A program made the position numbers and the translations under genes. A stretch of DNA of 39,331 nucleotides, taken from Macrostomum lignano (lineage: Eukaryota). Location of the stretch: contig NIVC01003627.1 of assembly GCA_002269645.1 (NCBI GenBank), positions 36,091-75,421 on the forward strand, written 5' to 3'. Positions within the stretch are counted from its first letter, which is position 1; every line of letters begins with the position of its first letter. Shown piece after piece: positions 17,152 through 37,757 of this stretch. Under the pieces are notes generated by a model that saw only the letters and a list, made by a program, of their open reading frames with translations, did no database searches and had not been told where the DNA came from.

Positions 17152-17728
17152 CCAGGTTGCGGATGGTATGCATGTACGCCGGAACTTTTCCGGCATACAA
17201 AACGGCCACCCTCAGTCCTTGGTGTACACAATCGGCGTACACAACCCCTGGCGCACTTTGTTGGCGTACACTATTGGCGTACACAAGTAACACAGCCACG
17301 CATACTTTTTTGGCGTACAAATTTTGGTGAATCAATTCATGCCGTGCATGAAAATTGTAATGTAAATTAATGTTTTTACGTAAAGTAAAGGAAAATTTAT
17401 ATCGTCAGTGATAAACTTTTTGCTTATTTTAAGTTAAAAAAAAATAGAACTAGTGTAAAATTTTGCTGAAAGTATTAACTTTGCATGATATTTTTTGTAG
17501 GTGTTATTTAAGTTTGTTTAAACTGACAATATTCGTAATATTTTAAAGACACTTTTCATACGAAAGCCTTTCCTAGAAAACTCTACTCGTGAAAACCGAA
17601 TGACCCTTTTTTTGGAATTTTTAGTGTACATTTGAGTGCAACTTTTTGTTTTTGGCGTACACTGGCGTACAAAGTCCTTGACGCCCGAATTTTTTCCGGC
17701 GTACACGGGTACATGATCCGCACACTGG
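17152..17728. mobile_element. MITE A (CCAG...CTGG termini, 8-bp TSD)
   Basis: Perfect TSD GTTGTAGG (17144-17151 / 17729-17736); imperfect ~35-bp TIRs sharing TGCGGAT and TGTACGCCGGAA; subterminal GGCGTACA arrays. Confidence 0.8.
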
Positions 17729-18259
17729 GTTGTAGGGCTTTTTAATTATAGCTTAGGGCCTATTTCATACTTTGTTAGGCCTACCAAATTTGTTATAGGC
17801 CTCTTAGCTCTTTGTTGAAAGTTAGGGGCCTACTGCTGCTACCAAATTTTGTTGTAGGGGTTGGGGTTAACTAACTATTTTGTTTTAGATGCAAGAATTA
17901 TCACAGGGGAGTTTCTTAGGATTTGGGAAGATTTCTACTACTAAAAGGAGTAAGCCTGAGTTTGCTCCTAGTGGCATAGTGTCCAAGCAGCAAGATACTG
18001 TCTATAACTCTATCAGCTAATATTAGTCCAAGGGAGGGCTACGCGATAGATCAGAGTTGCCTCCATAGTCAGAAAGGTGGCCTCTGAGGGGGAAAATTCC
18101 CGCGCACACAAAGGGTCTCGGTGCACATTGGTGCACAAGCATGGCGCACACAAGGGGTCCTTGGCGCACAATCATGGCACACACTAAGGTCCCTAGCGCA
18201 TGTGGCGCATAATTGCGGCACATATGGTCCCTGACATGCATGAAAATTGTAATGCAAAT

Positions 18260-19002
18260 TGTGACAGGCCTTTTGGCTCTGTCTTTCTAAACTTCTAACT
18301 ATTAGTGTTTATTAAATATCCTACGAGCTGCCACCAAAGTTGTTACAGGCCTTTCACCTCTTACTTTATCAATTTTAATCCCACCGATTTGCCAACTACA
18401 GTTATCCTGATTATACTTGCTTTTACTCCCTAACTATTTCTTAGAATTTCATTTAAATATTTCTGGGTAGCGTTCTTAGTAGCGTTTCTGGTAGCTTATG
18501 GCTTGCTTTCTGGTAGCGTTCTAGTAGCTTATGGCCTGAGCGGTCTAGTACTGGTATATGTATTAGTGTATAGTCCTAATCGGGCGTTCACCAAGACTAG
18601 AGGGTCACGGCGCCTCTCTTGGTATATCTCCAAGAATTAGTCCCAATTCCCTTCTCTTAGCAAATTTCTTAGAATCGTTTCACAGGTTTTGCAAATAAAT
18701 AAGTCGCTATTTAGCTCAAAGACTTTGAAATGGTTTAGATTGAACTGCTTATTCTGTTCGCAATTATTTGCTCACGAGTAAAAGACAGTTGGAGTATATT
18801 TGTCGCGAAACCGCTCCTATATATAGTGATTTCCCCACATACGATTAAAACAAAAAAATAATTCTCCAATTTATTTCGCGCATTAAAACAAACTATTATT
18901 TGGCGTTCGCGTAGATTCAGTTTCTAAGAAAGATTCGAATATACAGTTATTACATTGAAAGAACATTCGAGTATACTATGATAAAGGCATAGCACTAGTA
19001 CA
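18260..19002 (-). repeat. 3' LTR (743 bp)
   Basis: Matches 26167-26910 except C4 vs C5 in one run; AATAAA on the minus strand at 18308-18313. Confidence 0.97.
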
Positions 19003-19016
19003 ACTTTCCTCCTCTA
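19003..19016 (-). other. Polypurine tract
   Basis: Minus strand AGAGGAGGAAAGT immediately precedes the TGTACTAG start of the 3' LTR. Confidence 0.85.
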
Positions 19017-19288
19017 TATATCAAATTTTGAACGAAATACTATATTATATGTATACAGTGAAAAATTGATATCGTAGGAAAATGCAGGTGAAAAGGTGCA
19101 AAGCAAGGTGCAGAAAACACAATTCAGTGCTAAAACAATTGGTGCATAAAATGGTTGTGATAGAACTATTATGTAGGTAAACCATTAAAGTGAGAACTAT
19201 TATGGAAGCAAAGCGAACTATTATAAAAGTATTATAAAAGGCAAAATTGTTATTAAAGGCAACGCAAAAGTTAGTTCACCTCAGTAGT

Positions 19289-20164
19289 TCAGATAAACAT
19301 GCAGGGTTCCGGGAGGTCGCGATAGTAGGGCCAGCCGACTTGAGCGAAAAACCATCGGTACTCTTCGTCGAGGACCGTCAGCGCTGGCGGCGGGTTGGCT
19401 CTTATAGCCCGCTGGAGGCGATAGGCGACGTCCTGGAGAACAGCGACAGGTTCCTGGTAACTGAATTGATCCCTCAGAAACTTCAGGTGCGTCCAAATTT
19501 GCGAGCATTGGGGATAGCGCTGTCGGCTGTCGGATCGGTGGTATGCTACTTTCAGTGCGTATTGCTCAATGTGGAAGCGTAGCTTTTCCACCTCTGCTCC
19601 GCGAGTCTCCACAAGTTCTCGGACGATGCGATGAAAATCTCTCTGCGAATTCGATTGCTGCTGGCTCGGCTGTAGTGCTGATGGCTGGCTAGACTGCTGC
19701 GCTGATTGCAGGCTCGGCTGCAGCGCTGACTGCTGCGCTGATTGCAGGCTCGGCTGCGGCGCTGGCTGCTGAGCTGGCGGTGTCGCAGCTGTCGATTTCT
19801 TCTGCCGTGGTGCCGGGGTCTTCCTCGATGGTGGGGCAGCTGGCGGTGACACCAACTGCTGCGTTCGGCTTGATGTCGACGATCCTGGCGTGGCCTTGAC
19901 AACATAGGAGCGCACAGGCGCAGCTGCCTGTGCTGCCACCAGGGCGGCGCGCTTCTGTTCGGGGCCTTCGACCCTCATTTGGCGGCAAGGCGATGAAGCT
20001 GGCGATGATGTTCTTGGCCGTTTGCTGGATACACCAGGCGCCTTTGGACGTGTTGCACATCGAAGCGGTGCCTCATTTTCGTCGGTGTTGGGCGCTGGCT
20101 GAGGCTCCATATCGTCTGACAGGTCACCGATCAACTCTTGCAGAATGTCGACTGAGTTATCCAT
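19289..20164 (-). CDS. Extra retrotransposon ORF3, 291 aa, unknown function (disordered P/S/Q-rich N-terminus, compact aromatic-rich C-terminal domain)
   Basis: Uninterrupted ATG-initiated ORF between pol and the 3' LTR on the same strand; GC-rich relative to its flanks; no signal peptide or transmembrane segment visible. Confidence 0.75.
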   Translation of the reverse strand: MDNSVDILQELIGDLSDDMEPQPAPNTDENEAPLRCATRPKAPGVSSKRPRTSSPASSPCRQMRVEGPEQKRAALVAAQAAAPVRSYVVKATPGSSTSSRTQQLVSPPAAPPSRKTPAPRQKKSTAATPPAQQPAPQPSLQSAQQSALQPSLQSAQQSSQPSALQPSQQQSNSQRDFHRIVRELVETRGAEVEKLRFHIEQYALKVAYHRSDSRQRYPQCSQIWTHLKFLRDQFSYQEPVAVLQDVAYRLQRAIRANPPPALTVLDEEYRWFFAQVGWPYYRDLPEPCMFI

Positions 20165-20182
20165 ATGGTTCTCTTCGAATGA

Positions 20183-20312
20183 CTCTTAGAATAGAAAGGA
20201 AGCTAGCAGTGAGCTATGGGATCTGTGGGGCCTGCAGGGTGCTCGTATTTATAGGCTGGCGGGAAAAACTGGACCTCTTCGAAGCACTCCCCTCGCGCGT
20301 GGGGCGGGGCAT
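20183..20312 (-). promoter_or_regulatory. Putative internal promoter and/or splice acceptor for ORF3
   Basis: GC box GGGGCGGGG (20301-20309); TATAAATA on the minus strand (20246-20253), 89 nt above the ATG with no intervening ATG; pyrimidine tract CTTCCTTTCTATTCTAAG ending at ~20185. Confidence 0.5.
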
Positions 20313-20559
20313 GCCAGATTTGACAGATTTGACAACTAAATTTTTATGGATTTTCTATTTCTTTTTATAACTTTTTTATTTTTTGATAGATTTTCTTGAG
20401 TAAAGTATCAAATTAAAGATCGCATTTTGTAGATTAATATGGTATTTACAGATTCGCTCTATGTACAGCATGTCAAATTTTATAAGCAGATAAGTAATTC
20501 TAATACGGAATTTTAACTATTTAACACTGTTTCTTATGGGAAATTGCTTACGTCATGAT

Positions 20560-23500
20560 TTAAGGTGCTAAATATTTCGCGTAGCGCCTTCGGGGCACAA
20601 ATCCTGTCGCGCCTTCTCTTTCTCTCCTTCGCTGAGTCATCCTAAAGTTATACCTATTCTCTGGCTGAACTCGTTCCTCCTCTAACTCTAATGCTCCTTC
20701 TTCTTCTTCTGATGGCTCATCTGAGTCAGTCGCTCTCTCTGTATTTTCACTGTTTACTTCTTCATTTCCTTCGTTTTCACTCTGCGAATTCGGATCTGCG
20801 AATACTCTCCATTGAATTCTGTTTTCTTCGTCTGAGCTTTCCTCCTCTAAAATTTGAACTTCTGGAATTCTAACTTCTTTTTGTCTATGGCAAATTCTTT
20901 TCTTCGGCTTCGGCTGTTCTTTCTTCTTAGTTGGCACTGGTGCTGGTTTTAAATTATTATTAATTTCCTCTGGTAAATCAATTTCGGATTTCGGCACTGG
21001 AGTCAGATTATTTCTATGTACTAATAGTTTTTCTCCGCTCCTTTCGCCATTGATTTCTCTTTGCACACGGAAAACTGTATCAGATATCTTCGCAAGAACT
21101 CGATAGGCTGCTCTTTTCTTTCGATGAAATTTGTGGCTCTCCTCTTGGTGAAGTTGAGGATTGTTGATGAGAGCGAGACAGCCAACTGGCACATTTTTAG
21201 GCTGACGATTCTCAACTTCGTCCTCTTGCCTTTTCTCTCGCACCTTTTCGAGTTGTCTTCGCACAATTGCTTTTGTCTCCTCGATTCTCTTCGCATGATC
21301 CAGCACATAGCTAGGATAGTCTCGGTATAGTCTTGGCCTTTTCACAATGCTATCTATTGGCAAATCTGCTTCTCTCCCGAATAGTAAGTAGTGTGGTGTG
21401 AACCCAGTAGTTTGATTAACACTGGTTCGCACAGCTACCAGAGCGGCGGGTATGAGCAGATCCCAATCTGAATGATCCTTTTCAATCAAACAGGTTACAA
21501 TCGATTTAATTTGCTTGTTAAATCTTTCGACAAGCCCGTTACTCTGAGCATGGTAAGGCGTAGTGCAAGTATGCTTAATGCCGTATAGGGTACAGAATGC
21601 CTGAAATTGGTGACTTACAAAAGTCTTGCCATTATCAGTGTGTATCCATTGACACTGGCCATACTCGCTGAAAATTCTCTCTTGTATCGTTTTGATAACA
21701 GTCGCGGATTTCTGATTCCGAACCGGAAAAGCGAATGGGAACTTTGTTGTACTATCTACGACAGTAAGTACATATCGGTGTCCTCTTCTGCTTTCCTTTG
21801 ATATTGGACCGATCAAATCTATGTGCAGCCGATGAAATGGCTCGCATATCGGAAAGGTCTGCACCGGTGCTCGTACTTTATTTCCGCTTTTACTTTCCAG
21901 ACACGGGATGCATTCTGCGATGTACTTTTCAACTGCAGTCACTAACCCCGGCCTCCAGAATCGGTCTCGGACTCGCTGTAGCGTCTTGTCCCGACCTAGG
22001 TGGCCTGCTAGCGGACTGTCATGCAGCTCTTTGAATACATCTTTCTCAATCCTTTCTGGCAATACTACTTTCCGTTTACCGTCTTCACTGACTGTCAGCA
22101 TTTCATCTTCGATTTTCATCTGCTCGTAGAACTTAACCATCTTCTTCAACTCTCCGGATGCATTTTCTGGCAACTTCGGCTCACGCACTTTCTTCTGCTT
22201 CCAGTCCATCAAGGTTCTTATAGAAGGATCAGCATGCTGCGCTGAAGTCAGCTGCTCTTTCTTCAATGGAACCGAGAGGTAATCTGTCAGAAGCTTTCTG
22301 CACACTGTCTCTTCCTCTTCGAAATAGTCTCTTGCATCTTCATAGATGTCATCATTATCTTCGAACTGATCACTGGCATCTTCGTATTCATCATCTGCGA
22401 ATTCGTCTTCGGAATCTGATTCATACTCTTCTGTGAAGTCGGTCTGGCAACTCTGATCTTTCACGCTGTTAGTCACGACTTGTTTCACAGCGCTGGTTTC
22501 TATTGTCATCTTAGGAATTTCGGCCTCATTCTCTTTGATCTTAGCATCTTTCTGTTCAACTGGTGGTTCCGAGGGTCGCCGTGACAATCCATCTGCGTTG
22601 GAATGTTTGGCTCCACTGCGGTGCTCAATATCGTATTGAAACTCACTCAGTCTTTCAATCCATCTTCCGAGAATTCCTTGGGCTTCGGTCTGGCGCAGTA
22701 ACCATAGAATTGCCTTGTGGTCTGTGCGGGCCAGAAACCTTTTGCCAATTAGGTAAAATCGGAAGTGTTTCATGCCATCTACTAGCGCTAATAGCTCTTT
22801 TCTGGTAATCGGATATCTTTTCTCAGACTCTTTCATTGCTCTGCTGAAGTAAGCAATGGGTCTTTCAACCCCGTCCGATTGTATTTGACCCAGGCAAGCA
22901 CCAATTCGGTCTTCGCTTGCGTCGGTGTCTAATACCATTCGAACATTCTCGTTCTCTGAGAATTCTGGGTACGCGAGTACTTCGGTCGATGTCATTCTCT
23001 GCTTCAACTGCTGGAAAGCCTCGTCATGTTTCTTGGTCCACTTTTCCCTAAAGTTTTGAATACCTTTCTTAGTTAATTGAAATAGCGGATGCGCTGCCTC
23101 TGCGTAATTCTTTACAAATCTGCAGTAGTAGTTACACAACCCCAAGAAGCTTCGCAGTTCTTTGACCTCTTTCGGCGTAGGCCATGACTGTATCGCTTCG
23201 ATCTTAGCTGGGTCTGTTCTAATCCCTTCTCTTCCTACGATATGCCCTAAGTACTTTAGCTCTTTCTGAAACAAGTTGCACTTTTTTGGTCTTAATTTTA
23301 GTCCTGCTGAGATTAGTCTTTGAAATACTTCTTGCAGATGACCGAGATGATCTTCGAATTTCTCTGAGTATGTCACAATATCATCTATGTACGACATTGC
23401 GAATTTGTGCTGTATTCCCATCAGCACCAAATTCATGAGTCTCTGGAATGTACCAGGAGCGTTAGACAAGCCCTGTGCCATGACCTGATATTCGAACTGG

Positions 23501-23901
23501 CCTCTGGTAAGGGTGGAAAAGGCTGTCATAAATTTGTGCTCCTCTTTGATAGGTACCTGCCAGTATCCAGAGTTTAAATCTAGACTACTGAAGTACTTGC
23601 TTCCAGATAACTGAGCGAAAGTCTCTTGTATGTTCGGTAATGGATATGGGTAATAGTTCACTCTCGAATTCAGGACCCTGAAGTCACTGACGATTCTTAT
23701 GGATCCATCCTTCTTAGGAACTATCACTAGCGGCGTCGAATAAGTACTATAGCACGGTCGGATCAGGTTCTTAGCAAGCATGTCGTCAAGTTGCTCATCT
23801 ACTTGCTTTTGCAGATGTGGTGGAATTCTGCGTGTTGGAATCCTGACCGGTGTGGTATCTTTTAGAGATATTTCATGAGTCACAAGATGGGTGAGACCCA
23901 T
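20560..23901 (-). CDS. pol: Gypsy pol: reverse transcriptase, RNase H, integrase
   Basis: RT motifs LDLNSGYWQ and YIDDI; RNase H LDTDAS, ELLAL, TDHKA; integrase HHCC (H..PLAGHLG...CIPC) and DDE (HIDLIG, TDNG, VERFN). Confidence 0.97.
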   Translation of the reverse strand: MGLTHLVTHEISLKDTTPVRIPTRRIPPHLQKQVDEQLDDMLAKNLIRPCYSTYSTPLVIVPKKDGSIRIVSDFRVLNSRVNYYPYPLPNIQETFAQLSGSKYFSSLDLNSGYWQVPIKEEHKFMTAFSTLTRGQFEYQVMAQGLSNAPGTFQRLMNLVLMGIQHKFAMSYIDDIVTYSEKFEDHLGHLQEVFQRLISAGLKLRPKKCNLFQKELKYLGHIVGREGIRTDPAKIEAIQSWPTPKEVKELRSFLGLCNYYCRFVKNYAEAAHPLFQLTKKGIQNFREKWTKKHDEAFQQLKQRMTSTEVLAYPEFSENENVRMVLDTDASEDRIGACLGQIQSDGVERPIAYFSRAMKESEKRYPITRKELLALVDGMKHFRFYLIGKRFLARTDHKAILWLLRQTEAQGILGRWIERLSEFQYDIEHRSGAKHSNADGLSRRPSEPPVEQKDAKIKENEAEIPKMTIETSAVKQVVTNSVKDQSCQTDFTEEYESDSEDEFADDEYEDASDQFEDNDDIYEDARDYFEEEETVCRKLLTDYLSVPLKKEQLTSAQHADPSIRTLMDWKQKKVREPKLPENASGELKKMVKFYEQMKIEDEMLTVSEDGKRKVVLPERIEKDVFKELHDSPLAGHLGRDKTLQRVRDRFWRPGLVTAVEKYIAECIPCLESKSGNKVRAPVQTFPICEPFHRLHIDLIGPISKESRRGHRYVLTVVDSTTKFPFAFPVRNQKSATVIKTIQERIFSEYGQCQWIHTDNGKTFVSHQFQAFCTLYGIKHTCTTPYHAQSNGLVERFNKQIKSIVTCLIEKDHSDWDLLIPAALVAVRTSVNQTTGFTPHYLLFGREADLPIDSIVKRPRLYRDYPSYVLDHAKRIEETKAIVRRQLEKVREKRQEDEVENRQPKNVPVGCLALINNPQLHQEESHKFHRKKRAAYRVLAKISDTVFRVQREINGERSGEKLLVHRNNLTPVPKSEIDLPEEINNNLKPAPVPTKKKEQPKPKKRICHRQKEVRIPEVQILEEESSDEENRIQWRVFADPNSQSENEGNEEVNSENTERATDSDEPSEEEEGALELEEERVQPENRYNFRMTQRRREREGATGFVPRRRYAKYLAP

Positions 23902-25070
23902 TCTTGGTTGGTCTGCGAAAATGCTTCCTTGTTCTTCTTTAGCAAATCGATCACTAGTCCTTTCTGTTCTGATGTTAGCTCTTCTCCTAAATCGATCTCG
24001 TTTATCCAGCTGTACTCACTCTCTTCACTCTTCACTGTCCTAATTGTATCATCTGAACTGGCTTGACCTTTGCTGTTAATAGAGTAGGCCAGGCCTCCTG
24101 GCTTCAAGGGTTTGGCCACTCCAATCAGCGTAGATCTTGTCAGTCTGATATCGTCATTCTGTCGATTGATTATTTCCACTACTCCTGTTCCATCGTTCAT
24201 GGTCACTAGAGTAGGAATCATCTCTAAGGAATTTCTCTTCGTAGTCACTTGGCCTCCAATGGTGTCAATGACCATTGGCGTTCCATAGTTGGCTTCTGAT
24301 CCTTTAGTCATTCTAATTGGAATTCGAAGAGCGCTATTCGCTGGTATAGTCACGCTGTTATGGCTGTAGATTCGGCAAACCCGTACGGGTAATTTTGTAA
24401 ACTGAATTGGGATGCAGGTTCCTTCTTTTAATACAAGCATTCCTCTGGAAAGGCTGATGCTGTCGCAGAAGTTCATGAAGAACTCCATCCCGAGTATGTC
24501 GTCACACTCGTGATTGCACAGCAGGAACTCTGTCTCAATCTCTATCTCTCCGAATCGTATTTTCGTTCTGACTTCTCCTTCAATTCGCACACTTGATCCG
24601 TCAAACGTAGTCACTCTTCGAGTAGTCAACTCAATTTCATCACTTCTGAACATCTTTTTCCAAGTACTCTTGCTTAGGAAATTATGTCCAGCTCCTGTGT
24701 CTAGCAAGAAGTAGACCTTTCGGTTTCTTAGCATTCCATTGACGACTGCTTCTCGTCCTTTTCTCTCCGTATCTTCTTCGAATTCTCTCTTCGAATGCTC
24801 ATTCGGAATTACTGTACTTTGTACTTTATTATTCGGCCTACTGTGGCTAGCAGACGCATGACTAGGTGCAAGCGGCATATGTACACGAGGTGCAAAATTT
24901 TTATTTGGTTTTCTGTGAAATTTATTGAATTCGGCATGCGTTCTGCTGTTACTATACTGTCTGGCATTACTTCGATACGCATTATTTACAAATTCAGAGG
25001 CCTGAAATTCGCGATAATTGTTGCTAGAGGGACGTGGCCTCGCAAAGCGGCCCTCGCTACTCAGTTTCCC
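23880..25070 (-). CDS. Gypsy aspartic protease region, open in the -1 frame from the gag slippery site
   Basis: LLDTGA catalytic motif and DILGMEF; the frame of the 23880-24878 ORF has no stop up to GGGAAAC at 25064-25070 (translated by hand). Confidence 0.9.
   Translation of the reverse strand, partial: GKLSSEGRFARPRPSSNNYREFQASEFVNNAYRSNARQYSNSRTHAEFNKFHRKPNKNFAPRVHMPLAPSHASASHSRPNNKVQSTVIPNEHSKREFEEDTERKGREAVVNGMLRNRKVYFLLDTGAGHNFLSKSTWKKMFRSDEIELTTRRVTTFDGSSVRIEGEVRTKIRFGEIEIETEFLLCNHECDDILGMEFFMNFCDSISLSRGMLVLKEGTCIPIQFTKLPVRVCRIYSHNSVTIPANSALRIPIRMTKGSEANYGTPMVIDTIGGQVTTKRNSLEMIPTLVTMNDGTGVVEIINRQNDDIRLTRSTLIGVAKPLKPGGLAYSINSKGQASSDDTIRTVKSEESEYSWINEIDLGEELTSEQKGLVIDLLKKNKEAFSQTNQEWVSPIL
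25025..25070 (-). promoter_or_regulatory. Programmed -1 ribosomal frameshift signal (gag to pro-pol)
   Basis: G GGA AAC directly before the gag TGA; 8-nt spacer, then a GAGGG...CCCTC stem with inner CCGC/GCGAGG pairing. Confidence 0.8.
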
Positions 25071-26065
25071 TGCTGCTTCTGGTAGTCCATCACTCGCTGA
25101 CCGTTTGGCCTAGCGCTCTGGCAATTCCTCGCCATGTGGCCAAGCTTCCCGCAATTGTAGCAGGCTCGAGGCTGCTGCTGTTGCTGTGGCTGCCTGTTGA
25201 ACTGAGGCTGACCGCGCCATACTGGCTGCTGCTGCTGCTGCTGCTGCGGCCGATATCTCGGCTGCTGCGGCGGTCCAGCGACCTGAGCGTACGTTTGATA
25301 TTGATTCTGCGGATGATACTGCTGACGGCTAGCTCTCTTCTCTTCCATCAGCTCCTCAATCGCCTTCTTCTGTTGCTCTAACTCTGCTCTCTGCTTCTTG
25401 ATGATGTCCTCAAGCTTTTCCTGATCTGCCTTCTGCTCACTCTCGCCTTCGCCTTTGGCCATTCTCATGTTGACATTCTTGTGAGACATGTTCCACGCAG
25501 CCTCCATCCTTCTTAGCATTCTTCTAGCCTCTTGTAAATTGCCTGGCTGCGCAAAGATTAGCTTCTCACGGGTCTCTGACGGAATTCTGATTACCTTGAT
25601 GAATTGCTCAACAATTTCTTCTTCCCTTTGCTCAACCGTCATATTCGGAAATGCACGCGATGCCAGCTCGATCAAACAGTCTGCGAAAGTCTCTACAGGC
25701 TCATTTCTGCCTTGCATTCTTCCACGAAACTCCTCTCTGAATTCTGCGGAACTACCGATTCTTCCAAATCGCTCAATCAGTCGCTCTTTGAACTCTTCGT
25801 ATTCAAGATCCTCGGGCAGATTTAGGCGCTGTACCGCTGCGAATGCAGTGGACAGGTCCAGATTAGCTAGCAATTCCTGCTTCCTATGTTCCTCATCTAT
25901 CCCTTCTACTTCACAGCGCTGATCGAAGGCTGTTAGCCAGATCCGAATGTCTTGCGTAGGTGTGAATTTCTGAATCTTAACGTGTCTCATCGGCCCTATC
26001 TCTAGTCGGTTTCGCAATTCTTCTGCCAGCATGGCGATGGCATCATTAGCCTGATTCTGATTCAT
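25061..26065 (-). CDS. gag: Gypsy Gag with CCHC zinc knuckle, 334 aa
   Basis: Retrotransposon-gag-like FRGRMQGRNEPVETFADCL; coiled coil; CYNCGKLGHMARNC knuckle. Confidence 0.95.
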   Translation of the reverse strand: MNQNQANDAIAMLAEELRNRLEIGPMRHVKIQKFTPTQDIRIWLTAFDQRCEVEGIDEEHRKQELLANLDLSTAFAAVQRLNLPEDLEYEEFKERLIERFGRIGSSAEFREEFRGRMQGRNEPVETFADCLIELASRAFPNMTVEQREEEIVEQFIKVIRIPSETREKLIFAQPGNLQEARRMLRRMEAAWNMSHKNVNMRMAKGEGESEQKADQEKLEDIIKKQRAELEQQKKAIEELMEEKRASRQQYHPQNQYQTYAQVAGPPQQPRYRPQQQQQQQPVWRGQPQFNRQPQQQQQPRACYNCGKLGHMARNCQSARPNGQRVMDYQKQQGN

Positions 26066-26145
26066 CTTCTCTCTATGAAAAAACTTTTCAAATTATTCTT
26101 CGGAATTCTTCTGAATCTAGTTTTAAGAGTTCGCGCCGTTTCTCT

Positions 26146-26164
26146 AATCCCACCGCTGCCACCA
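26146..26164 (-). other. Primer binding site, tRNA-Leu type
   Basis: TGGTGGCAGCGGTGGGATT starting 2 nt after the 5' LTR; complementary to the 3' end (...AATCCCACCGCTGCCA-CCA) of eukaryotic tRNA-Leu(AAG/UAG). Confidence 0.9.
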
Positions 26165-26166
26165 GC

Positions 26167-26910
26167 TGTGACAGGCCTTTTGGCTCTGTCTTTCTAAACT
26201 TCTAACTATTAGTGTTTATTAAATATCCTACGAGCTGCCACCAAAGTTGTTACAGGCCTTTCACCTCTTACTTTATCAATTTTAATCCCACCGATTTGCC
26301 AACTACAGTTATCCTGATTATACTTGCTTTTACTCCCTAACTATTTCTTAGAATTTCATTTAAATATTTCTGGGTAGCGTTCTTAGTAGCGTTTCTGGTA
26401 GCTTATGGCTTGCTTTCTGGTAGCGTTCTAGTAGCTTATGGCCTGAGCGGTCTAGTACTGGTATATGTATTAGTGTATAGTCCTAATCGGGCGTTCACCA
26501 AGACTAGAGGGTCACGGCGCCTCTCTTGGTATATCTCCAAGAATTAGTCCCAATTCCCTTCTCTTAGCAAATTTCTTAGAATCGTTTCACAGGTTTTGCA
26601 AATAAATAAGTCGCTATTTAGCTCAAAGACTTTGAAATGGTTTAGATTGAACTGCTTATTCTGTTCGCAATTATTTGCTCACGAGTAAAAGACAGTTGGA
26701 GTATATTTGTCGCGAAACCGCTCCTATATATAGTGATTTCCCCCACATACGATTAAAACAAAAAAATAATTCTCCAATTTATTTCGCGCATTAAAACAAA
26801 CTATTATTTGGCGTTCGCGTAGATTCAGTTTCTAAGAAAGATTCGAATATACAGTTATTACATTGAAAGAACATTCGAGTATACTATGATAAAGGCATAG
26901 CACTAGTACA
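26167..26910 (-). repeat. 5' LTR (744 bp)
   Basis: Near-identical to 18260-19002; TATA-like TATATATAG near 26726-26733 and AATAAA at 26216-26221 on the minus strand. Confidence 0.97.
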
Positions 26911-29842
26911 AAATTAACAATTTTATGTAAAATAAAGGAGATTTGTATAGTCTAGAAAGTCAGTGATAAACTTTTTGCTTCTTTGAAATTAATAGTAAAT
27001 AAAATTAGTGTAAATTATCTCAAAAAACATCAATTTTGCATTACTCTATTTGTAGGTATAATTCAAGTTTGTTTAAAATGAAAATATGCGTAACAATTTA
27101 AAAAGGCTTTTGGTACGAAGGCCTTTCTTAGAAAACTCTACTCGTGAAGAGTGGCGCACAGACAGCACACAGACAGCACACAAATGGCGCATAGATGGCA
27201 CATAGACGGCGCACAAATCTTCCCAAAAAAATTATTCCAGTGCACACTGTGCCACCTTCCTGACTATGGAGTTGCCTAGGAAACAGGGTACACTAATTGG
27301 GAATTTCAATAACTATAAAGGAATGCTGACATGGAGGGCAATGCACAATAGGGAATTGGATGAGGGCAGGGTGCCTAATAGTTAGAAGGGAGTTAAGTAG
27401 GCAAGGAAAGCCTAATGGGATAGGGAGGCAGAGTACCTAATATTAAGGGAAGGGTTTATAGATGGGCAAAGGCGTGGGTAGACAGTGTGTCTGGATAAGG
27501 AGTTGGCAAATTGCCAGGTTAGACTAAATATCTGGGAAAAGGGGGGAAAGCAATTACATGGGAAGGGACTGTGCATTCTTTTGAGGAGAAAAGGGGGGTG
27601 AATGGGACACGGTTCTCCTGGCAGAGTGCTTGTGGGGAAGGGAAAAGCAGCTGGGCACTCCTATTGTACAGTGGGCTTTGGGAAAGGAAAAAAGGCTGAA
27701 AGCTGATTCAATTCTATTTTTAGAACAAACTGTTCATTAGGCAAAGCTAGGCTAACAGGAAAGAAGTTAGCTAGGAAGCACCAAGAGGTGAAACACAAGA
27801 GGAAGCGAGTGCAAATTGCTTTCTACTGTGTATTTTTACCTATATATATATAAATTCTAGCAAAAATGGCAGACTATTTTAAACAAAGTTTTATAATCAG
27901 AAAATTAGTGACAAACATATGGTACTACAATGGTTTACTTTGCAAAAACTGATTCATTTTTAAGGCGTATAAGAATATTAATAATAAAGATGGTAACTAT
28001 ACATTAAAAATGAGGATTTTAATAATGAAGCAACTAGGCAAATAAGGCTGTAAATATACATTTTAAGGCATACAAGAATTTAGTTACAAAATGAATGAAT
28101 GATTATGAATGAATGATGATAAAAATGAATGATTAATAGATAAGGCCTAGCTGGGTTATTAAAAATATAAACAGAATTATAGGAATTTTTTTTTAGATAC
28201 ACTGATATTTTGAATAACAATATATTAGTTGTCAGTTATCACTATGTGATAAATTTCAGACAGTTGATTATTGATTTTGAACAATGTCAATATGTAAAAG
28301 AATAATTTGTACGTTTTTGCAAACAAGAGTGGAAGACAAACTGGTAGCATAAAAAATGACTATCAACCAATAATATAGGTCTTGTAATATAAATTATAAA
28401 AGTTTTTTTTTGAAAATAAAAGTTCATCAATTATTTAAAAGCAGAATAGCCAAAAACTATAACAAGGCCTATAAAAGTTAGTTGTGGCCAAAATACATTA
28501 ATGGGCTATGGAAGATTTTTTTATTTTTAGCTATAGCTAATAGCATAATCTAATTTCTTTTTTATAGTATATATAATTCTGATTATTCAAAGTTGTTTTT
28601 TAACCAAGGCAACAAAGCAAACATATTGGAAAAGTAAAGAAAATTAGAATTTTTTTCAAAATTTTATACATTTATATATTACATAAGGCCTATGTAATAT
28701 GTAAGGTTGGTTTAAAGTAAAAAGGTCATATATAGTTTTAGTTCAGGTTGTATATATACAACTTATTATCCAATTATACTTTTAATATAATATTAGAAAC
28801 TATTGTAACTTTGATCTATATATTTAGAATATGAGAAGTGTTTTTGTAATTTTTATGCATAAAGTATTAAGCAGTTTGATATTAAATTTTTAAATTTGAT
28901 TTTTTGCAAAGTCTTTATTTATAAGCTATCATACATGTGCAACAGTTGGCCAATCCAGCTGACCAATTTGGTAGCCAACCAAGGTAGGTTGCAAAAATGC
29001 CCACCTGAATAAATACCCAAGTAGCACTAAGTAGATAATGAGGCATTTTGCCTTAATAAGACAGTCAAAATTACTCTTACCATTTACCCAAAGTTGAATT
29101 AAGTTTGCTTTAGGGTTTCTTTTACATGTAAGTCACATTTTTGGCCAAAAAACTGTCACATTTTTTCTTAAAACTAAGTTGCATGGCCTTAGTTTACATG
29201 TGCATACATACATGCACAACCTCCAAATTTTGCTATGTATGTAAGCCATAGTTTTTTTTGTTAGACTAACACTAGAATTCTTTAGTATGCCTGGTCTTAA
29301 AAAAAAATAAAATCAATTGGCATAACAATGTATGATTTTGATATAATTGTATATCTTCTAGTTTTCCTTAATTTCATAAAGAGATATATGAATAACAACA
29401 TAGTAAAGATTTTAAATCTTGCCACAACTTTTACATAAAAAAACTAAGTTTTTTAGGTCACTTGTCCTCCAGGACAAGCCTAAGCATAAAATGAACTATA
29501 GTTTATAAGTGAAGCTAGGTTTCTTATTATTGCTATAGTAAAGCAGGTATACATAGACTAACTGATAGCCATATAGTCTAAGCATGTTGTCCATAATCCA
29601 TTGAAAACGATACCATGACAAGAGTCGCTAAAAAGTCGTTGCAAACAACTCTCTAGTGACTCTAGCGCGTCTGGGGCGACTTGTGACTTTTTAACGACTC
29701 AAACGCGTCAAATGTGATGGAGAGGTGACTGTTGCATCACAAGCGCGTCACCTGAGTTGTAGAAGCGTAAGAGTCGCAAATAAGTCGTCCAAGAATCGTT
29801 GTGCTGGCGCTTAACTTTCTACTAACTCAGTAGGATAGTGAA

Positions 29843-30030: not shown

Positions 30031-30838
30031 ATAAAAGCCCGATAAAGAGCCCGATAAAAACGGTACCCAGGCCAAGTAACGTCCTGGAGTCACTTGTGTC
30101 GCCCCAGAGTCGTTTCAGATGCGTTGCAGATGCCATAAGTCAAATAGGAAAGAAGAGATTCTAAAAGCCTCTAAAACAACAAGATGTCGCGGTTAAGCCA
30201 TGAGGCTGGACAGGCAAACAAAGCGGCGTTTGGCGAGCAAGAGGCTGCAACAGCCTGCCTATTTTTGCCGCCACGCGGCAAAAAGCGCTCTCGCCACTCT
30301 TTGCACTTATTTTTTGAACGAAATAAAAAAATAAAATTGCTCGTAATTGGCAAGCCATTGAACGCGACAGAGTAATGAACACATACAAGTCGCCCAAAAG
30401 TCGCAGAAGAAGCGCTTTAGCGTCACTGTAAAATCGTTAGTGCATCACTTCTCAGTCGATGAGCATGCATTTTCTATTCGCCCAGAAATTAAGATCCAAC
30501 AGTCTGTTTAAGGCCGGTAGTAACAACCCTGTAACGCGTCCAGAGCTAATGTTATTGCTAGTCCAAATTAATGCTTAAATATATAAATAATATTAGTATT
30601 TGACATTTGGAGTACAAATTCAGGATTCCAAAATTAAATTTGATGTATTTTGTAATGTACAATACGCCGCAAAGACCAAACAAACAAAAAAATGAATGCA
30701 TGACTTTATAAATTTCTGAACTTCTAAACTGCTTTCAGTGGATAGCACACACCCGTCAGTCCAAGTCGAGATTAGATTTTATTATTAATCAATTTTTTTC
30801 CAACAAAGCTGGTCAAAACGGGGCATCCGGAGGTCACA

Positions 30839-31269: not shown

Positions 31270-31670
31270 TATAAGATTTACTGCTAGATTTTCTGAGATC
31301 TACCGTCCGTGAGATTTTTCTGAGATCTAGCGTGAGATTTTCTTATATCTACCGTGAGATTTTGTGAGATCTGCTGTGAGATTTTGTGAGATCTGCTGTG
31401 AGATTTTCTAAGATCTAGTGTGAGATTGTCTAAGATCTATTGTGAGCTTTTCTTGGATCCAGTGTGAGATTTTTCGAGATGCTGTGAGATTTTCTGAGAT
31501 CTACTGTGAGATTTTCTTGGATCCAGTGTGAGATTTTTTAAAATGCTGTGAGATTTTCTGAGAAATGCCGTCTGTAAGATTTTCTAAGATCCAATGTGAG
31601 ATCGTCTGAGATGTAGCGTGAGATTTTCTGAGATCTACTGTGAGATTTTTCTCTGTGAGATTTTTCTTGT
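31270..31670. repeat. Degenerate ~21-22-bp minisatellite in UBE2S intron 1
   Basis: Unit about GTGAGATTTT(C/G)TGAGATCT.CT. Confidence 0.85.
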
Positions 31671-31848
31671 GCGGTGAAGTCTTAGAAAGTTGTCGCACAA
31701 CGAATCTAACGAATTATCTTAGTAACGATGAACAGTGTGCAATAAAAAATATAACCCCTGTGTCTACTCATAGCAAGTACTATAAATCTGCAATCTCAAA
31801 CATTAGAATTTAGAATTTCAACCATTTTTCTCTGCCTGTTTCGCGCAG

Positions 31849-31982
31849 GAGGCTGGCCGGCTTCTGCTAGAAGACTACGCTGAGTACTTTTCCAGGGCGC
31901 GCCTGTTCACAGAGGTTCATGCCTTGCAGAATCCCGCTGTTGCCGCTGGGTTCGAGCCGATGGAGGCCGGCGACAATGCCGT
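31849..31982 (+). CDS. UBE2S: UBE2S exon 2
   Basis: Acceptor CGCGCAG|GAG; encodes EAGRLLLEDYAEYFSRARLFTEVHA...; donor GT|GTAATT, phase 2. Confidence 0.88.
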
Positions 31983-32084
31983 GTAATTGAACGTTCTTGT
32001 TTCGTCTTTTTCTGATTCCTATTATCCTGGATCTATCGGGGATGAGTGATAATTGATCCCATTCTTATTTATTTAAGATCAGAA

Positions 32085-32425
32085 TTCAGAATCCCCATTT
32101 CCATATGGGATCAGAATCCCCTATTCTATATGGGTTCAGAATTCCCATTTCTATATGGGATCAGAATCCCCATTTTTATATGGGATCAGAATCCCCTATT
32201 CTATATGGGTTCAGAATTCCCATTTCTATATGGGATCAGAATCCCCATTTTTATATGGGATCAGAATCCCCATTTTTATATGGGATCAGAATCCCCATTT
32301 CTATATGGTATCAGAATCCCCATTTTTATATGGGATCAGAATCCCCTATTCTATATGGGTTCAGAATTCCCATTTCTATATGGGATCAGAATCCTCATTT
32401 CTATTTTGTATCAGAATCCTCATTT
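32085..32425. repeat. 25-bp minisatellite (75-bp higher order) in UBE2S intron 2
   Basis: Unit ATATGGGATCAGAATCCCCATTTTT. Confidence 0.92.
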
Positions 32426-32455
32426 GATTTCTTAATTCACTCGAAAATCCTGCAG

Positions 32456-32600
32456 ACTTCGTGACGCCAACGACAATGCCATTGCCTCAGTTGCCGCCTC
32501 TTCCACAGCAGCCGGCACATCCGGCTTGGCCAAGCGACCCCTGGCTCAGCCTGCAGGACCTGCGGCTAAAAAGTCTAAAAAAGCTTTGAAACGTCTTTGA
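32456..32600 (+). CDS. UBE2S: UBE2S exon 3 (terminal)
   Basis: Acceptor CTGCAG|A, phase-compatible with exon 2; ends AKRPL...AAKKSKKALKRL*, the basic C-terminal tail characteristic of UBE2S. Confidence 0.88.
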
Positions 32601-33413
32601 AAGACAGGCATTTTGTTGCCTGTCTGTCCGTCAGTCAACGTATCTGCCGTATCCTAAATTGTGTTTGCAAACCTGTTTGAAAAATGGAAAACATTAAACA
32701 AAAATGATGAGCAAAATCCTTATTTGTCAATCTGCTAATTCATGTTTCATGTGATTTGATGCTGTTGCTTTATTTCTTGACTTCTTGTTAAGTTCTGTAG
32801 CTTAAGAATGCTTTCGCTAAAAAATTCTCGTCCTTTACCTGCTACTTCTACAAGTATTATTTGTGCAGATATTGATTGCGCAATAAGTCTGAGTTTTTTG
32901 AGTTGGGGTTGGAGAGAAAAATCGCTTGTTGGTTTTCTTGCCTTTACTCTCATTCTGTTCTGCGACAATGAATTGCAGTAACACAGCCTATGCTCTACTA
33001 TTAATAAAATAGCTATTGAATGCAAACATTGCGTTCATTCTGACAGAACTGCATTAAAAAGGCATTAAAAATATTTTTCAATTTTATTTTCCGCTACTTT
33101 AAGTAGCCAATATTCAGTAAGAAAAAAGAAAAAAATGCCGATATGTTGAGTAAATAACATTGTAGAGGAGTCATTTTTAGTACAGAGGAAATAGCTTAAC
33201 TACTAAACTACTACCTATTAAGTAGTAAGTACGAGTAAATACAATAGTTTACGTTATAGAACTAATTAGATGACGAGGTAATTGCGTTATAAAATGCTGT
33301 AATATTTACTCCGGCTTTTTACCTATGTTAATAATTATTTTAACCGTTTGCGTATATACTACTAGAGAATCCATAGTAGTTGAAAAGCACATTGTTATCC
33401 GATTTCAGCGGCC

Positions 33414-33788
33414 ATGTCTACGTCGCCAGCCAATCCCGACGAAGATCCGCTCCTGCAGCAGTTGAACCGCCTGCTGGACATTCAGCAGAGCGCAGGCCTG
33501 CTAGCTCAGCTGGCCAACGCTAAAACCGACGCTGAGAAGGAGCGAATCCTCTTTGCCAGGGTGCTCCGGCCGCAGCTGGCCTTGCCGCCTTCCTTTACTT
33601 CGCCCCACATGCCGCCATTGAGTCCCGAGGAGCGTCGGGTTCGCGTAGTGATGGATAGTTGCGCTTTCAAAGCCTGTCTGTCCTGTGTAGCCGGCGGTGC
33701 TCTGGGCGCCTTCTTTGGCCTGTTCACGGCCAGCATTGATCCCATGTCCACTGTGGTGCCCGGCGCCGAGACTCCCAGCACTAGACAG
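33414..33788 (+). CDS. TIMM22: Mitochondrial inner membrane translocase Tim22, exon 1 of 2 (~208 aa total)
   Basis: MDSCAFKACLSCVAGGALGAFFGLFTASIDP; donor CAG|GTGCGT, phase 0. Confidence 0.9.
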
Positions 33789-33824
33789 GTGCGTTGCCTG
33801 ATAACTGCTGTATTTTTTATTCCT

Positions 33825-34380
33825 AATGATCCTTTATGACCCTTCATAATTCTTTATGACCCTTTATGATCATTTTTAACCCTTTATAGTCCTATATGGC
33901 CCTTTATGATCATATTATGTCCCTTCATGATCATTTATGACCCTTTAGGATCCTGTATGACCCTTTTTGATCCTTTATTACCCTTTTTTGATCCTTTTAT
34001 GACCCGTTATGACCTTTCATGATCTTTTATGAAGCTTAATGATCCTCTATGACCCTACATAATCCTTTATGACCATTATGATCCTTTATGGCTCTTAATG
34101 ATCTTTGATGATCATGAATGATCCCTAGTGACCCTTCATCATGCTTTATGACCCTTTTTGATCCTCTATGACTTTACATGATTCTTTATGGCCCTCCATC
34201 ATCGTTTATGACCTTTTTGATCCGTTATGACTTTATGATCCTTTATGACCCTTTATGATCTGTTATGATCCTTAATTATCGTTATGACCCCTCATGATCC
34301 TTTATGACCCTTCATGACCTTTTATAATCCGTATTGATTCTTTATGACTATTTTTTGATTCTTTATAACCCTTCATTTCA
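33825..34380. repeat. Degenerate ~10-bp (20-bp dimer) minisatellite in the TIM22 intron
   Basis: ATGACCCTTT / ATGATC(C/A)TTT units. Confidence 0.85.
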
Positions 34381-34482
34381 TGATTATCTAATACTGTTCT
34401 TGTTTAATTTAATGATTTTAGATCTTTAATTACACGCACTATCGTACCTATTCACGATCCTAATTTAACAAATAACGCGCAG

Positions 34483-34734
34483 GTACTACGCGAAATGGGC
34501 AGCCGAATGGTGTCCTATGGCAAGAATTTCGCAGTACTAGGCATCATGTTCGCTTCCACGGAATGCGCTCTAGAGGTGGTGCGCGCTAAAAACGATTTGC
34601 TCAATGGCACTGGCGCCGGCGCCATCGTTGGCGGCGTGCTGGGATTTCGCGCCGGTTTGAAAGCCGCAGGCGCAGGGGCCGCCGGTTTTGCCGCCTTCTC
34701 TACGGCGATTGACTGGTATATGAAGCATAGGTAG
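34483..34734 (+). CDS. TIMM22: Tim22 exon 2 (terminal)
   Basis: Acceptor GCGCAG|GTA; [34 protein letters not shown]...GFRAGLKA....[11 protein letters not shown]. Confidence 0.92.
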
Positions 34735-34789
34735 AGCCTGTAGTGTGGCCTGCGCTGTGTTTGATTTGTATTGCTTAGTGTTCGATTGG

Positions 34790-35290
34790 GGAATTCCCCA
34801 GTGATTTTCTTGATTGCCTTGCTGATTCAAATGTTTTGGAATTCCTTTGGTGAAGGTTAGGGAATTCCCTTGGTGATTTTTAATTAGGGAATTCCCTTGG
34901 TGATTTCCTATTAGGGAATTCCCTTGGTGATTTCCCATTAGGGAATTCCCTTGGTGATTTCTGATTAGGGAATTCCGTTGGTGATTTCTCATTAGGGAAT
35001 TCCCTTGGTGACAATTGTAGACAATCTCCCTTGGTGATTTCTCATTAGGGAATTCCCTTGGTGACAATTGTAGACAATCTCCCTTGGTGATTTCTCATTA
35101 GGGAATTCCCTTGGTGACAATTGTAGACAATCTCCCTTGGTGATTTCTCATTAGGGAATTCCCTTGGTGACAATTGTAGACAATCTCCCTTGGTGATTTC
35201 TCATTAGGGAATTCCCTTGGTGACAATTGTAGACAATCTCCCTTGGTGATTTCTCATTAGGGAATTCCCTTGGTGACAATTGTAGACAAA
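34790..35290. repeat. 26/27-bp minisatellite evolving into a 53-bp dimer
   Basis: GGGAATTCCCTTGGTGATTTCTCATTA units; later copies alternate with CAATTGTAGACAATCTCCCTTGGTGA. Confidence 0.92.
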
Positions 35291-35764
35291 TTGTAGTCGT
35301 AATTTCCTGTTGGGGAATTTTCATTCTGGAGGTGCTTTGTTAGGGAATTCTTTTTGTAGCTTCCTGTTTGAGAAATTCCATAGGTTTCCATTAGGGAATC
35401 CCTAAATTTCTCATTATGAGAGAATCATGGATAGAAGTGCACCAGCTTAATGAATGCACTTACACTTAATTCATGTTCAATGTAAATGCTATGAGTAATA
35501 GACATCCGTACTTTTCGCTGCAACTTGTTAATACGTATAAAAAGCGTGCATTTTTTATTTCTAGAATTGTTTGTCGCTATATATCAGTTTTAACAGTACA
35601 ATATACGAATATTTTACGAGCGTTATTGTCATTCTTTAATTACCTGTGCATCGGTTGGATATGCGATAAGTACCGATGCCTCCGTGCATTCATTCATTGG
35701 AAATATCTCTAGTTGAAATCGTTCTAAATATTTTATTTGTTTATTTTTACTTGAAAAAAGATTG

Positions 35765-36655
35765 TAGACAATCTCCCTCCTGACCCCCTAGAGAATCGCC
35801 CTCCTGACCCGCTAGAGAATCGCCCTCCTGACCCCCTTTAGAGAATCGCCCTCCTGACCCCCTTTAGAGAATCGCCCTCCTGACCCGCTAGAGAATCGCC
35901 CTCCTGACCCCCTTTAGAGAATCGCCCTCCTGACCCGCTAGAGAATCGCCCTCCTGACCCCCCTATAGAATCGCCCTTCTGACCCCTTTAGAGAATCGCC
36001 CTCCTGACCCGCTAGAGAATCGCCCTCCTGACCCCCTTTTGAGAATCGCCCTCCCGACCCCCTTTAGAGAATCGCCCTCCTGACCCCCTTTAGAGAATCG
36101 CCCTCCTGACCCCTTTAGAGAATCGCCCTCCTGACCCCTTTAGAGAATCGCCCTCCTAACCCCGTTTAGAGAATCGCCCTCCTGACCCCCCTATAGAATC
36201 GCCCTCCTGACCCCTTTAGAGAATCGCCCTCCTGACCCCTTTAGAGAATCGCCCTCCTGACCCCTTTAGAGAATCGCCCTCCTGACCCGCGAGAGAATCG
36301 CTCTCCTGACCCGCTAGAGAATCGCCCTCCTGACCCCCTTTAGAGAATCGCCCTCCTGACCCCTTAAGAGAATCGCCCTCCTGACCCCCTTTAGAGAATC
36401 GCCCTCCTGACCCGCTAGAGAATCGCCCTCCTGACCCGCTAGAGAATCGCCCTCCTGACCCCCTTTAGAGAATCGCCCTCCTGACCCGCTAGAGAATCGC
36501 CCTCCCGACCCCCTTTAGAGAATCGCCCTCCTGACCTCCTTTAGAGAATCGCTCTCCTGACCCCCTTTAGAGAATCGCCCTCCTGACCCCTTTAGAGAAT
36601 CGCCCTCCTGACCCCCTAGAGAGTCGCCCTCCTGACCCCCTAGAGAATCGCCTCT
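35765..36655. repeat. 24-26-bp minisatellite upstream of CUL4
   Basis: Unit AGAGAATCGCCCTCCTGACCC(GCT/CCTTT), roughly 35 copies. Confidence 0.95.
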
Positions 36656-36738
36656 CTCATAAAAACCCAACCTCTTGTTTGATGCAGCCCACGGTACACA
36701 ACAGCAGCATTCAGTGATCAAACCTGGCCACCACCACA

Positions 36739-37090: not shown

Positions 37091-37154
37091 GTGAGTGCTT
37101 TTTTGCAGATTAATTGTCTCAGGTGGGTAAGGGGTTCGAATCCGAAGGAATTTT

Positions 37155-37320
37155 ATGAGATTCTCATGTGTGAGAATATTCTGACATATTCTCAGGTGTG
37201 AGAGAATATTCTAAGACAGATTCTCAGGTGTGAGAATATTCTGGGAGATTCTCAGGTATGAGAATATTCTAATAGATTCTCAGGTGTGAGAATATTTTGA
37301 GAAAGATTCTCAGCTGTGAT
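37155..37320. repeat. ~28-32-bp minisatellite in CUL4 intron 1
   Basis: GATTCTCAGGTGTGAGAATATTCT units. Confidence 0.85.
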
Positions 37321-37371
37321 ATTGTATATTCTGACTAAATATGATGCCGTTATTCCTCGGCCTCTCCCCAG

Positions 37372-37743: not shown

Positions 37744-37757
37744 GTGAGACTCTTCTG

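Follow-up and report, generated by a model that had tools for sequence, protein, structure and literature searches.

A conserved open reading frame downstream of pol as a candidate accessory gene of a Ty3/gypsy retrotransposon in Macrostomum lignano

The Ty3/gypsy element and its third open reading frame

We analysed a stretch of 39,331 nucleotides from the flatworm Macrostomum lignano (assembly GCA_002269645.1, contig NIVC01003627.1, positions 36,091 to 75,421), hereafter the window. It contains a complete Ty3/gypsy LTR retrotransposon on the minus strand, recognised from its LTRs, target-site duplication, primer-binding site, polypurine tract and Pfam domain order. All features below lie on this strand, with coordinates in ascending window order. 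The 5' LTR (26167..26910) has TG...CA ends, a TATA-like box at 26732 and an AATAAA at 26220, and the 3' LTR occupies 18260..19002. A 4-bp target-site duplication (ATTT) flanks the element at 26911..26914 on the 5' side and at 18256..18259 on the 3' side. The primer-binding site (26146..26164), which we take to be tRNA-Leu-like, and the polypurine tract (19004..19015) are both present, as expected for a Ty3/gypsy element, and so is the order of the coding regions: gag (25061..26065), encoding 334 aa with a CCHC zinc knuckle, is followed by pol (20560..25070), in which Pfam recognised protease, reverse transcriptase (RT), RNase H and integrase in gypsy order.

Frameshifting at a slippery heptamer is an established mechanism of pol expression. 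The heptamer GGGAAAC at the end of gag (25064..25070), with the -1 frame open into the protease region, suggests that pol is expressed in this way. In the copy analysed, the pol frame is broken once, near 23900 between the protease and RT parts; a mutation could account for this, as could an error of the assembly.

The two LTRs are identical at 744 of 745 positions and the insertion, judged from its sequence, is recent. The RT region matched an NCBI protein of M. lignano at 100%, within a cluster of 10 members, so the family appears to be both multi-copy and recent. P0011 and P0036, whose alignments are short, were left out of an RT tree of the 120 listed hits; among the remaining 118, the element grouped with two other M. 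lignano Pols in a long-branch clade with a support of 1.0; this tree, which includes no reference elements of Mag, CsRN1, Gmr1/Osvaldo or Mdg3, resolves the Macrostomum clade only. No Rfam match was obtained over 17500-27500, no tRNA genes were found, and the element contains no canonical heat-shock element.

Between pol and the 3' LTR, we confirmed the intact sense ORF of 291 aa reported in the initial annotation, here called ORF3 (19289..20164). It is read in the same direction as gag and pol. A distance of 395 nt separates its start from the pol stop (20560), and 285 nt lie between its end and the end of the polypurine tract and the 3' LTR. When 19004-20559 was block-shuffled with its composition preserved, none of 2000 replicates contained an ORF as long (the longest had 280 aa). 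A 36-nt tandem repeat of 2.4 copies (19692..19776) encodes Gln/Ser repeats, and the 3' untranslated region (19016..19288) is U-rich, with three copies each of ATAATAGTTC and TGCACC. ORF3 has no similarity to gag (probability 0.3%) and an origin by gag duplication was discarded.

The ORF3 protein family and its predicted fold

A phmmer search with residues 170-291 against 1.84 billion representatives (E <= 0.001) recovered four homologues, P0001 to P0004, with E values from 1e-17 to 2e-4. Their C-terminal domains are 28-43% identical to that of ORF3 and 37-60% identical among themselves. An alignment-based search found P0002 and P0004 only, among 8000 sequences scored. The conserved C-terminal part corresponds to residues 171-291 (19292..19654), predicted as a five-helix domain that ends in GWPYY-x-LP-x-PC. 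We considered the terminal CMFI as a prenylation box and do not claim it: the Cys is fourth from the end in two members, third in two and absent in one.

Conservation also extends to the N-terminal half. Residues 31-75 (19940..20074) form an NLS-like EAPLR-TRP-KRP...(Q/K)KRAA block, which is identical at 27 of 45 positions to P0001 (E 5e-12) and at 23 of 58 to P0002 (E 4e-6). The EAPLR-TRP-KRP...KxAA pattern is thus common to ORF3 and two of the four homologues; P0003 and P0004 have no basic block. Residues 4-15 (20120..20155) are predicted to form an acidic amphipathic helix. When read from its third Met (residue 57), P0001 has about the length of ORF3 and a similar acidic amphipathic start; the helix is absent from the other three homologues (P0002-P0004) as predicted. 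The homologues devoid of the acidic helix or the basic block may be partial sequences; the source of P0002 is a contig of 5426 nt. The acidic start, the KRPR motif, the QPSLQSAQQS repeats (two copies) and the lack of a transmembrane segment (best 19-residue Kyte-Doolittle mean 1.02) all agree with the earlier description of the protein. None of the four homologues has the QPSLQSAQQS repeats, and we dropped the Gln/Ser repeats as a functional feature because they are not conserved.

Substitutions between ORF3 and its homologues were more conservative than under a neutral null, the observed value being reached in 0, 3, 70 and 0 of 2000 simulations, although the test is partly circular, the homologues having been picked by score, and is clear for three of the four comparisons and weak for one (70/2000). 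Few neutral runs stayed free of stop codons (13, 13, 27 and 8 of 2000). On these comparisons, ORF3 is a real coding gene under protein-level constraint. The opposite reading, a fortuitous or dead ORF, draws on the GC-rich and partly tandem-repetitive DNA and on the fact that ORF3 is not annotated as a protein; we regard it as very improbable given the shuffled controls, the four homologues, the conservative substitutions and the confident fold described below. ORF3 itself was not recovered from a set of 5.8 billion proteins (160-510 aa, word-index search, no match among 4813 candidates), and its absence, alongside a pol cluster of 10 members, would be expected if ORF3 were expressed separately at a low level or not at all, or if annotation had missed it.

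No recognised family includes ORF3 in the databases searched. It had no match near the curated cut-offs of Pfam and NCBIfam, no match among PDB sequences at E <= 10, no usable match in the ESM Atlas and none in phage records; 110 pattern matches in bacterial and archaeal genomes yielded no confirmed case. The only named homologue, P0004, is the M. lignano gene model Mlig026206g2, a "hypothetical protein". According to PMC5730564, the gene models of M. lignano were built on assembled transcripts, so this relative of ORF3 is probably transcribed.

That the sole named homologue is an ordinary gene model is one of the observations behind an unlikely alternative, in which ORF3 and its promoter would have been captured from a host gene or another mobile element, constrained in their original setting, and would have no role in retrotransposition. 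ORF3 (GC 0.587, GC3 0.60) is closer in composition to two host exons of the window (GC 0.54 and 0.62, GC3 0.64 and 0.70) than to pol (0.44 for both), and a complete promoter-like block accompanies it. However, gag is also GC3-rich (0.56), ORF3 is intronless and intact, and no close host copy (>=90%) appeared among the homologue search results. In addition, five members that are 28-60% identical would fit the diverged M. lignano sister families of the RT clade, a pairing that is conjectural.

AlphaFold2, run with the five-sequence alignment, predicted a disordered region of 165 residues at the N-terminus and five confident helices at 167-275 (pLDDT mostly 81-95 in the blocks of residues about 171-280, 61 in one loop, no strands); a fold from the single sequence was unusable (pLDDT 44.5). 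The helical C-terminal domain proposed beforehand thus came out as a confident bundle, and the suggested structural comparison gave no fold match: Foldseek returned nothing at E <= 0.001 against the PDB and viral models. Structure searches were made with the full-length model. The top row was the Gle1 C-terminal domain (Z 8.2, rmsd 3.3, 120 aligned), tied with CUL3 residues 28-148 (Z 8.0, rmsd 3.4, 98 aligned, 5% identity) and B12-binding caps (Z 8.0, rmsd 2.4, 79 aligned), all below the level that the search tool treats as meaningful for helical proteins; a NOT1 MIF4G domain was also among the top rows (Z 7.0, rmsd 3.6, 99 aligned). In this model the fold matches generic helical bundles only, and we recognised no fold of known function, DNA-binding or other. 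Env, Tas, nuclease and esterase have no row among the fold matches listed, which does not exclude them. We infer that short conserved motifs in a disordered arm joined to a small bundle of the interaction type would be more in keeping with an adaptor or regulator than with an enzyme.

Lentiviral accessory proteins are known to divert ubiquitin ligase or silencing complexes. The recurrence of cullin repeats among the rows (CUL2, CUL4B, CUL5 and a CRL7 complex at Z 6.1-6.7, besides CUL3) raises the question of whether the five-helix domain could be a host-manipulating effector that mimics a cullin repeat or similar scaffold and diverts such complexes. Planarian Burro elements, with their apoptosis- and ubiquitin-related domains (PMC6431247), provide some precedent. 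Nevertheless, unrelated bundles (B12-binding caps, 2S albumins, MA3) score level with the cullin rows, sequence identity is 4-6%, and Foldseek gives nothing at its cut-off of E <= 0.001; we consider this explanation quite unlikely.

The spacer and the possible routes of ORF3 expression

Pol and ORF3 are separated by a spacer of 395 nt (20165..20559) with an AT-rich 5' part (GC 0.18-0.28), followed by a GC-rich promoter-like block. This block has a GC box (20301..20309), an E2F-type site TTTCCCGC (GGCGGGAA on the opposite strand; 20258..20266) and, 6 nt after the latter, the TATA box TATAAATA (20246..20253). From the usual TATA spacing, a transcription start is predicted near 20225. No ATG lies between the TATA box and the ORF3 start, the nearest upstream one (20312) being out of frame, and the GC box and ATG-free TATA box already noted in the initial annotation were thus recovered. 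A GC box located 20-100 nt upstream of a TATA box was obtained in 30/5000 and 4/5000 shuffles of the spacer, and the GC box, E2F site and TATA box together in none of 20000 shuffles of the 148-nt block; these motifs, E2F included, were spotted by eye before being tested, so the tests are post hoc. A chance origin of this promoter-like anatomy seems unlikely on these counts.

The perfect E2F consensus is TTTSSCGC. Within the element, it occurs only in the candidate ORF3 promoter and in each U3, and it is absent from gag, pol and ORF3. Three E2F-core sites (TTTSSCG) surround the TATA box of the 5' LTR (26711..26813), one of them being perfect (26782-26789); three cores were reached in none of 3000 shuffles of the initial 250 nt of the LTR, again for a motif chosen post hoc. 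TTTSSCGC is also enriched across the window (11 against 4.4 expected), with 8 of the 11 outside the element. The leader contains GGCGCGAA (26130..26137), identical to the E2F site reported for the LTR of the Caenorhabditis elegans element Cer1, and the published Cer1 consensus (SGCGSGAA) matches both the ORF3 promoter and this leader (PMC3315495). That consensus is not enriched in the window (4 against 2.2 expected; 18/100 shuffles).

According to PMC3315495, the E2F site is kept in Cer1-family LTRs and reported, partly as an unpublished result of its authors, to be important for germline expression. In flatworms, neoblasts and progenitors are described as the sole dividing cells (PMC8629357), so E2F control would aim both the ORF3 promoter and the LTR at them. 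Germline targeting is the alternative, because E2F in C. elegans is reported to act in germ-cell rather than mitotic expression (PMC3315495).

Two other features of the spacer were discarded. The AATAAA that had been thought to separate ORF3 from pol is present at 20380-20375; however, it lies in an A-rich tract and such a motif arises at chance level (3162/5000 and 3944/5000 spacer shuffles), and the genomic RNA would be cut short if it served as a poly(A) signal. We also dropped the idea of response elements common to spacer and LTR: the two share no 10-mer, their common 8- and 9-mers are at chance level, and AATCT, present five times, does not exceed the best-word control.

A candidate splice acceptor with a branch-like CTCAC (20213), a pyrimidine tract and a terminal AAG spans 20185..20213, its AG ending at 20185, 20 nt before the ORF3 ATG. 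Its pyrimidine tract (13/14) is the best of the 847 sense-strand AGs of the element and was matched in 41/5000 and 167/5000 shuffles. The top acceptor motifs of the host are CAG in cis and YTNCAG in trans (PMC8629364). The position first assigned to this acceptor was therefore correct and its tract is exceptional, but "good" overstated a site that ends in AAG and not in YAG. A YTNCAG sequence is present at 20237. In the 5' LTR, AAA/GTAAGA (26266..26271) is a candidate donor by prediction only, and it is unremarkable, GTRAG occurring 11 times on the sense strand of the element.

Three routes to an ORF3 mRNA can be envisaged, namely an internal start, splicing from the LTR donor at 26271, and spliced-leader trans-splicing. 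We consider the internal start to be the most likely, and it can be combined with trans-splicing. We lean towards ORF3 having its own mRNA, which the internal GC-box/E2F/TATA promoter would drive from a start around 20225 to an end in the 3' LTR; a spliced leader may be added at 20185.

The splice signals would be more central if ORF3 were an RNA-handling factor comparable to Rev or to CERV, the accessory protein of Cer1, expressed by splicing from 26271 to 20185 or by trans-splicing and aiding the export of unspliced genomic RNA. The outstanding pyrimidine tract, the branch-like motif at the usual distance and the GTAAG donor of the LTR are consistent with this, as are the trans-splicing of about 30% of M. 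lignano genes and the presence of about 15% in operons (PMC8629364), the precedent of CERV in a gypsy-type element (PMC10309623), and the Gle1 and NOT1 rows among the top folds. Against it, the AAG acceptor is not of the kind preferred by the host, donors such as the one in the LTR are common in the element, Z values near 8 are background for helical bundles, and the GC box/E2F/TATA block would be left unexplained. We thus hold this second role to be improbable.

Relation to known third genes and possible function

The initial annotation proposed a non-env third gene, and the protein indeed shows none of the sequence hallmarks of an envelope or fusogen, while the fold searches list generic helical rows only. 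All five family members are devoid of a hydrophobic segment (best 19-residue means 0.22-1.02, from hydropathy only), of N-glycosylation sequons and of RX[KR]R furin sites; they have 0-4 Cys, none invariant, and ORF3 has no Pfam env match. An envelope or cell-fusion protein, for which the position downstream of pol is the only argument, is hardly credible.

Several non-env genes are known from this slot. The sORF2/FAST-like proteins of the MDG1 group, small fusogens of insect elements, are likewise encoded by an accessory ORF that is sometimes downstream of pol, but they are 63-107 aa long, span the membrane with one helix and often carry an N-myristoylation motif (bioRxiv 10.1101/2025.03.14.642691). 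ORF3, with 291 aa, no transmembrane segment and an MDN start, falls outside this class (60-210 aa, single transmembrane helix, MGxxxS/T start). In bdelloid rotifers, the ORF3 products can be identified as enzymes or membrane proteins (GDSL esterase, DEDDy exonuclease, env-like; PMC5408684), whereas the flatworm ORF3 matches no Pfam family at the curated cut-off and no GDSL or DEDDy family was found at E <= 10 in any of the five members. Additional ORFs of plant elements, such as Retand TRP28, occupy the same interval, are conserved and have a proposed regulatory function; in contrast to the sense-oriented ORF3, the regulatory candidates are mostly antisense, and no common Pfam domain was detected (PMC11963269, PMC7264820).

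Two animal elements come closer in some respects. In Oikopleura Tor3b and Tor4b, the third sense ORF also has an mRNA starting downstream of the 5' LTR, from the internal promoter Penv, and in Tor4b this start was mapped by RACE to the spacer after pol, whereas that of ORF3 is predicted only; the Tor product is a transmembrane Env glycoprotein (PMC4402516) and ORF3 is of soluble type. CERV, like ORF3, belongs to a gypsy-type element and is an orphan accessory protein, with a candidate basic NLS and flexible linkers, and Cer1 shares with our element an E2F site in the LTR and a host with trans-splicing (PMC3315495, PMC10309623). However, CERV has 517 aa, a five-exon mRNA sharing gag exons, a Cys-rich ring domain and a G-protein-like domain (PMC10309623), whereas ORF3 is a single exon after pol, with few Cys, an all-helical model and no similarity to gag.

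The foamy-virus Tas/Bel1 protein is encoded by a 3' accessory gene of 209-308 aa with an internal TATA promoter and has an acidic activation domain (PMC3798896). Its likeness to ORF3 is a functional analogy only, no Tas-type Pfam or viral-fold row being among the matches listed, and foamy viruses are Retroviridae with env, their internal promoter being located inside that gene (PMC3798896). In the features compared, ORF3 falls outside env, sORF2, the enzymatic ORF3s and CERV; it may still function like Tas or CERV.

We found no description of ORF3 in the literature searched. A survey of M. lignano Ty3/gypsy (Ty3/Mdg4) elements covers the same host and superfamily and describes LTRs, primer-binding site, polypurine tract, gag and PR-RT-RH-IN, with no mention of extra ORFs, envelope, accessory genes or E2F in the available part of its main text (PMC12801592). 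Its supplements contained no match to two element motifs, four gene ids and six of the eight WPY codon spellings, a weak negative given partial rows and wrapped FASTA, and the gene ids were also absent from one supplementary file of PMC5816591. The ORF3 family is thus apparently undescribed, in a slot of a known kind. The idea of an undescribed accessory gene holds in so far as the gene is real, constrained, distinct from env and outside any recognised family; published precedents weigh against the label "new system", as does the chance that ORF3 is a captured host gene.

We favour, tentatively, a reading in which ORF3, which lies intact within a young element and belongs to a small family under constraint on its amino acids, serves a gypsy lineage of Macrostomum as a true accessory gene. 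Its protein, in the models obtained, is of soluble type: the N-terminal half is disordered and carries short motifs that are conserved, and five helices make up the folded C-terminal domain. As to its role, our preferred but equally tentative proposal is an internally promoted nuclear adaptor that would raise or protect transcription of the element in cycling cells. The E2F-type sites would switch on both the ORF3 promoter and the LTR in such cells, in flatworms the neoblasts and their progeny. The basic motif would then take the protein into the nucleus, the acidic amphipathic helix would recruit host co-activators and the helical bundle would bind a host or element partner. Nuclear ORF3 would result in more transcription of the element or in a shield from silencing. 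With its internal promoter, length of about 300 aa, acidic activation region and NLS, this organisation would resemble that of Tas, as an analogy in which no sequence link was seen.

A more ambitious form of this proposal strikes us as doubtful. The flatworm gypsy lineage would have evolved independently a complex-retrovirus layout, in which an E2F-gated internal promoter drives a protein of a new family. This protein, acting in the nucleus as a trans-activator or against silencing, would switch on the LTR specifically in pluripotent neoblasts, providing a route from adult stem cells to the germ line without envelope.

Complex retroviruses are well known to encode accessory regulators. Among animal gypsy-type elements, the literature that we found offers one nuclear accessory protein with a shown function (CERV) and one class of fusogens (sORF2). 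Non-env third ORFs in rotifers and plants, a nuclear accessory protein in a gypsy-type element (CERV) and an internal promoter after pol (Tor4b) were already published; what this analysis adds is the E2F-type site placed 6 nt upstream of the TATA box, together with additional E2F cores in the U3 of the LTR. If ORF3 is a passenger, it would be a minor example of gene capture. The E2F-type promoter, if real, may serve as a short driver for proliferating cells in M. lignano, and through the promoter-like block a connection with stem cells can be tested. The worm is amenable to transgenesis and RNAi, and the conserved orphan family makes directly testable there the question of how retrotransposons are expressed in adult stem cells guarded by piRNAs.

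Insertion site and host surroundings

The Ty3/gypsy element, which lies on the minus strand, was inserted into a host repeat (flanks 17344-18259 and 26915-27170). When the flanks were joined without the element, a segment of ~250 nt was found repeated at a spacing of ~890 nt with 79% identity. A 21-nt inverted match also links positions ~18061 and ~27270.

Elsewhere in the window, tandem-repeat arrays are numerous (3890-5072, 6744-8190, and 31288-39282) and give rise to spurious long ORFs; several of these arrays sit between the exons of host genes (UBC-domain and Tim17-family genes). An inverted pair of E2F-type sites (30264-30282) precedes the exon of a ubiquitin-conjugating enzyme (30839) by about 560 nt, and a second pair of such sites occurs at 34645-34694.

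A possible Polinton/Maverick-like capsid module

Three intron-free ORFs were observed at 81-3437. The one of 360 aa (1469-2551) produced a double jelly-roll Pfam match that fell below the cut-off (E 2.7e-5); it is followed by the ORF of 287 aa, and the third, of 384 aa, is in divergent orientation. No match was recovered among PDB sequences. This three-ORF layout suggests a Polinton/Maverick-like capsid module.

Features of the retrotransposon and of the spacer preceding ORF3

Each LTR contains two fragments similar to the element's own primer-binding site (26230-26300 and 18323-18393). In pol, where the regions noted are 20563-21000 and about 22300-22550, a long acidic linker separates RNase H from integrase, and the C-terminal tail is acidic, then Arg-rich. 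ORF3, the 291-aa ORF between pol and the 3' LTR, ends with a CaaX-like CMFI (19292-19303) whose Cys position differs between homologues. The U-rich stretch 3' of ORF3 (19004-19288) carries three copies each of ATAATAGTTC and TGCACC, which are possibly sites for RNA-binding proteins.

The spacer between pol and ORF3 (20165-20559) includes an A-rich tract (20341-20396), also a weak 21-nt tandem repeat, which on the plus strand reads as a long T-rich tract with TAG at its end and could be an antisense acceptor or a terminator. A donor-like GTAAG is present at 20551, 9 nt 3' of the pol stop codon. Splicing from this site to the candidate acceptor at 20185 would excise the spacer.
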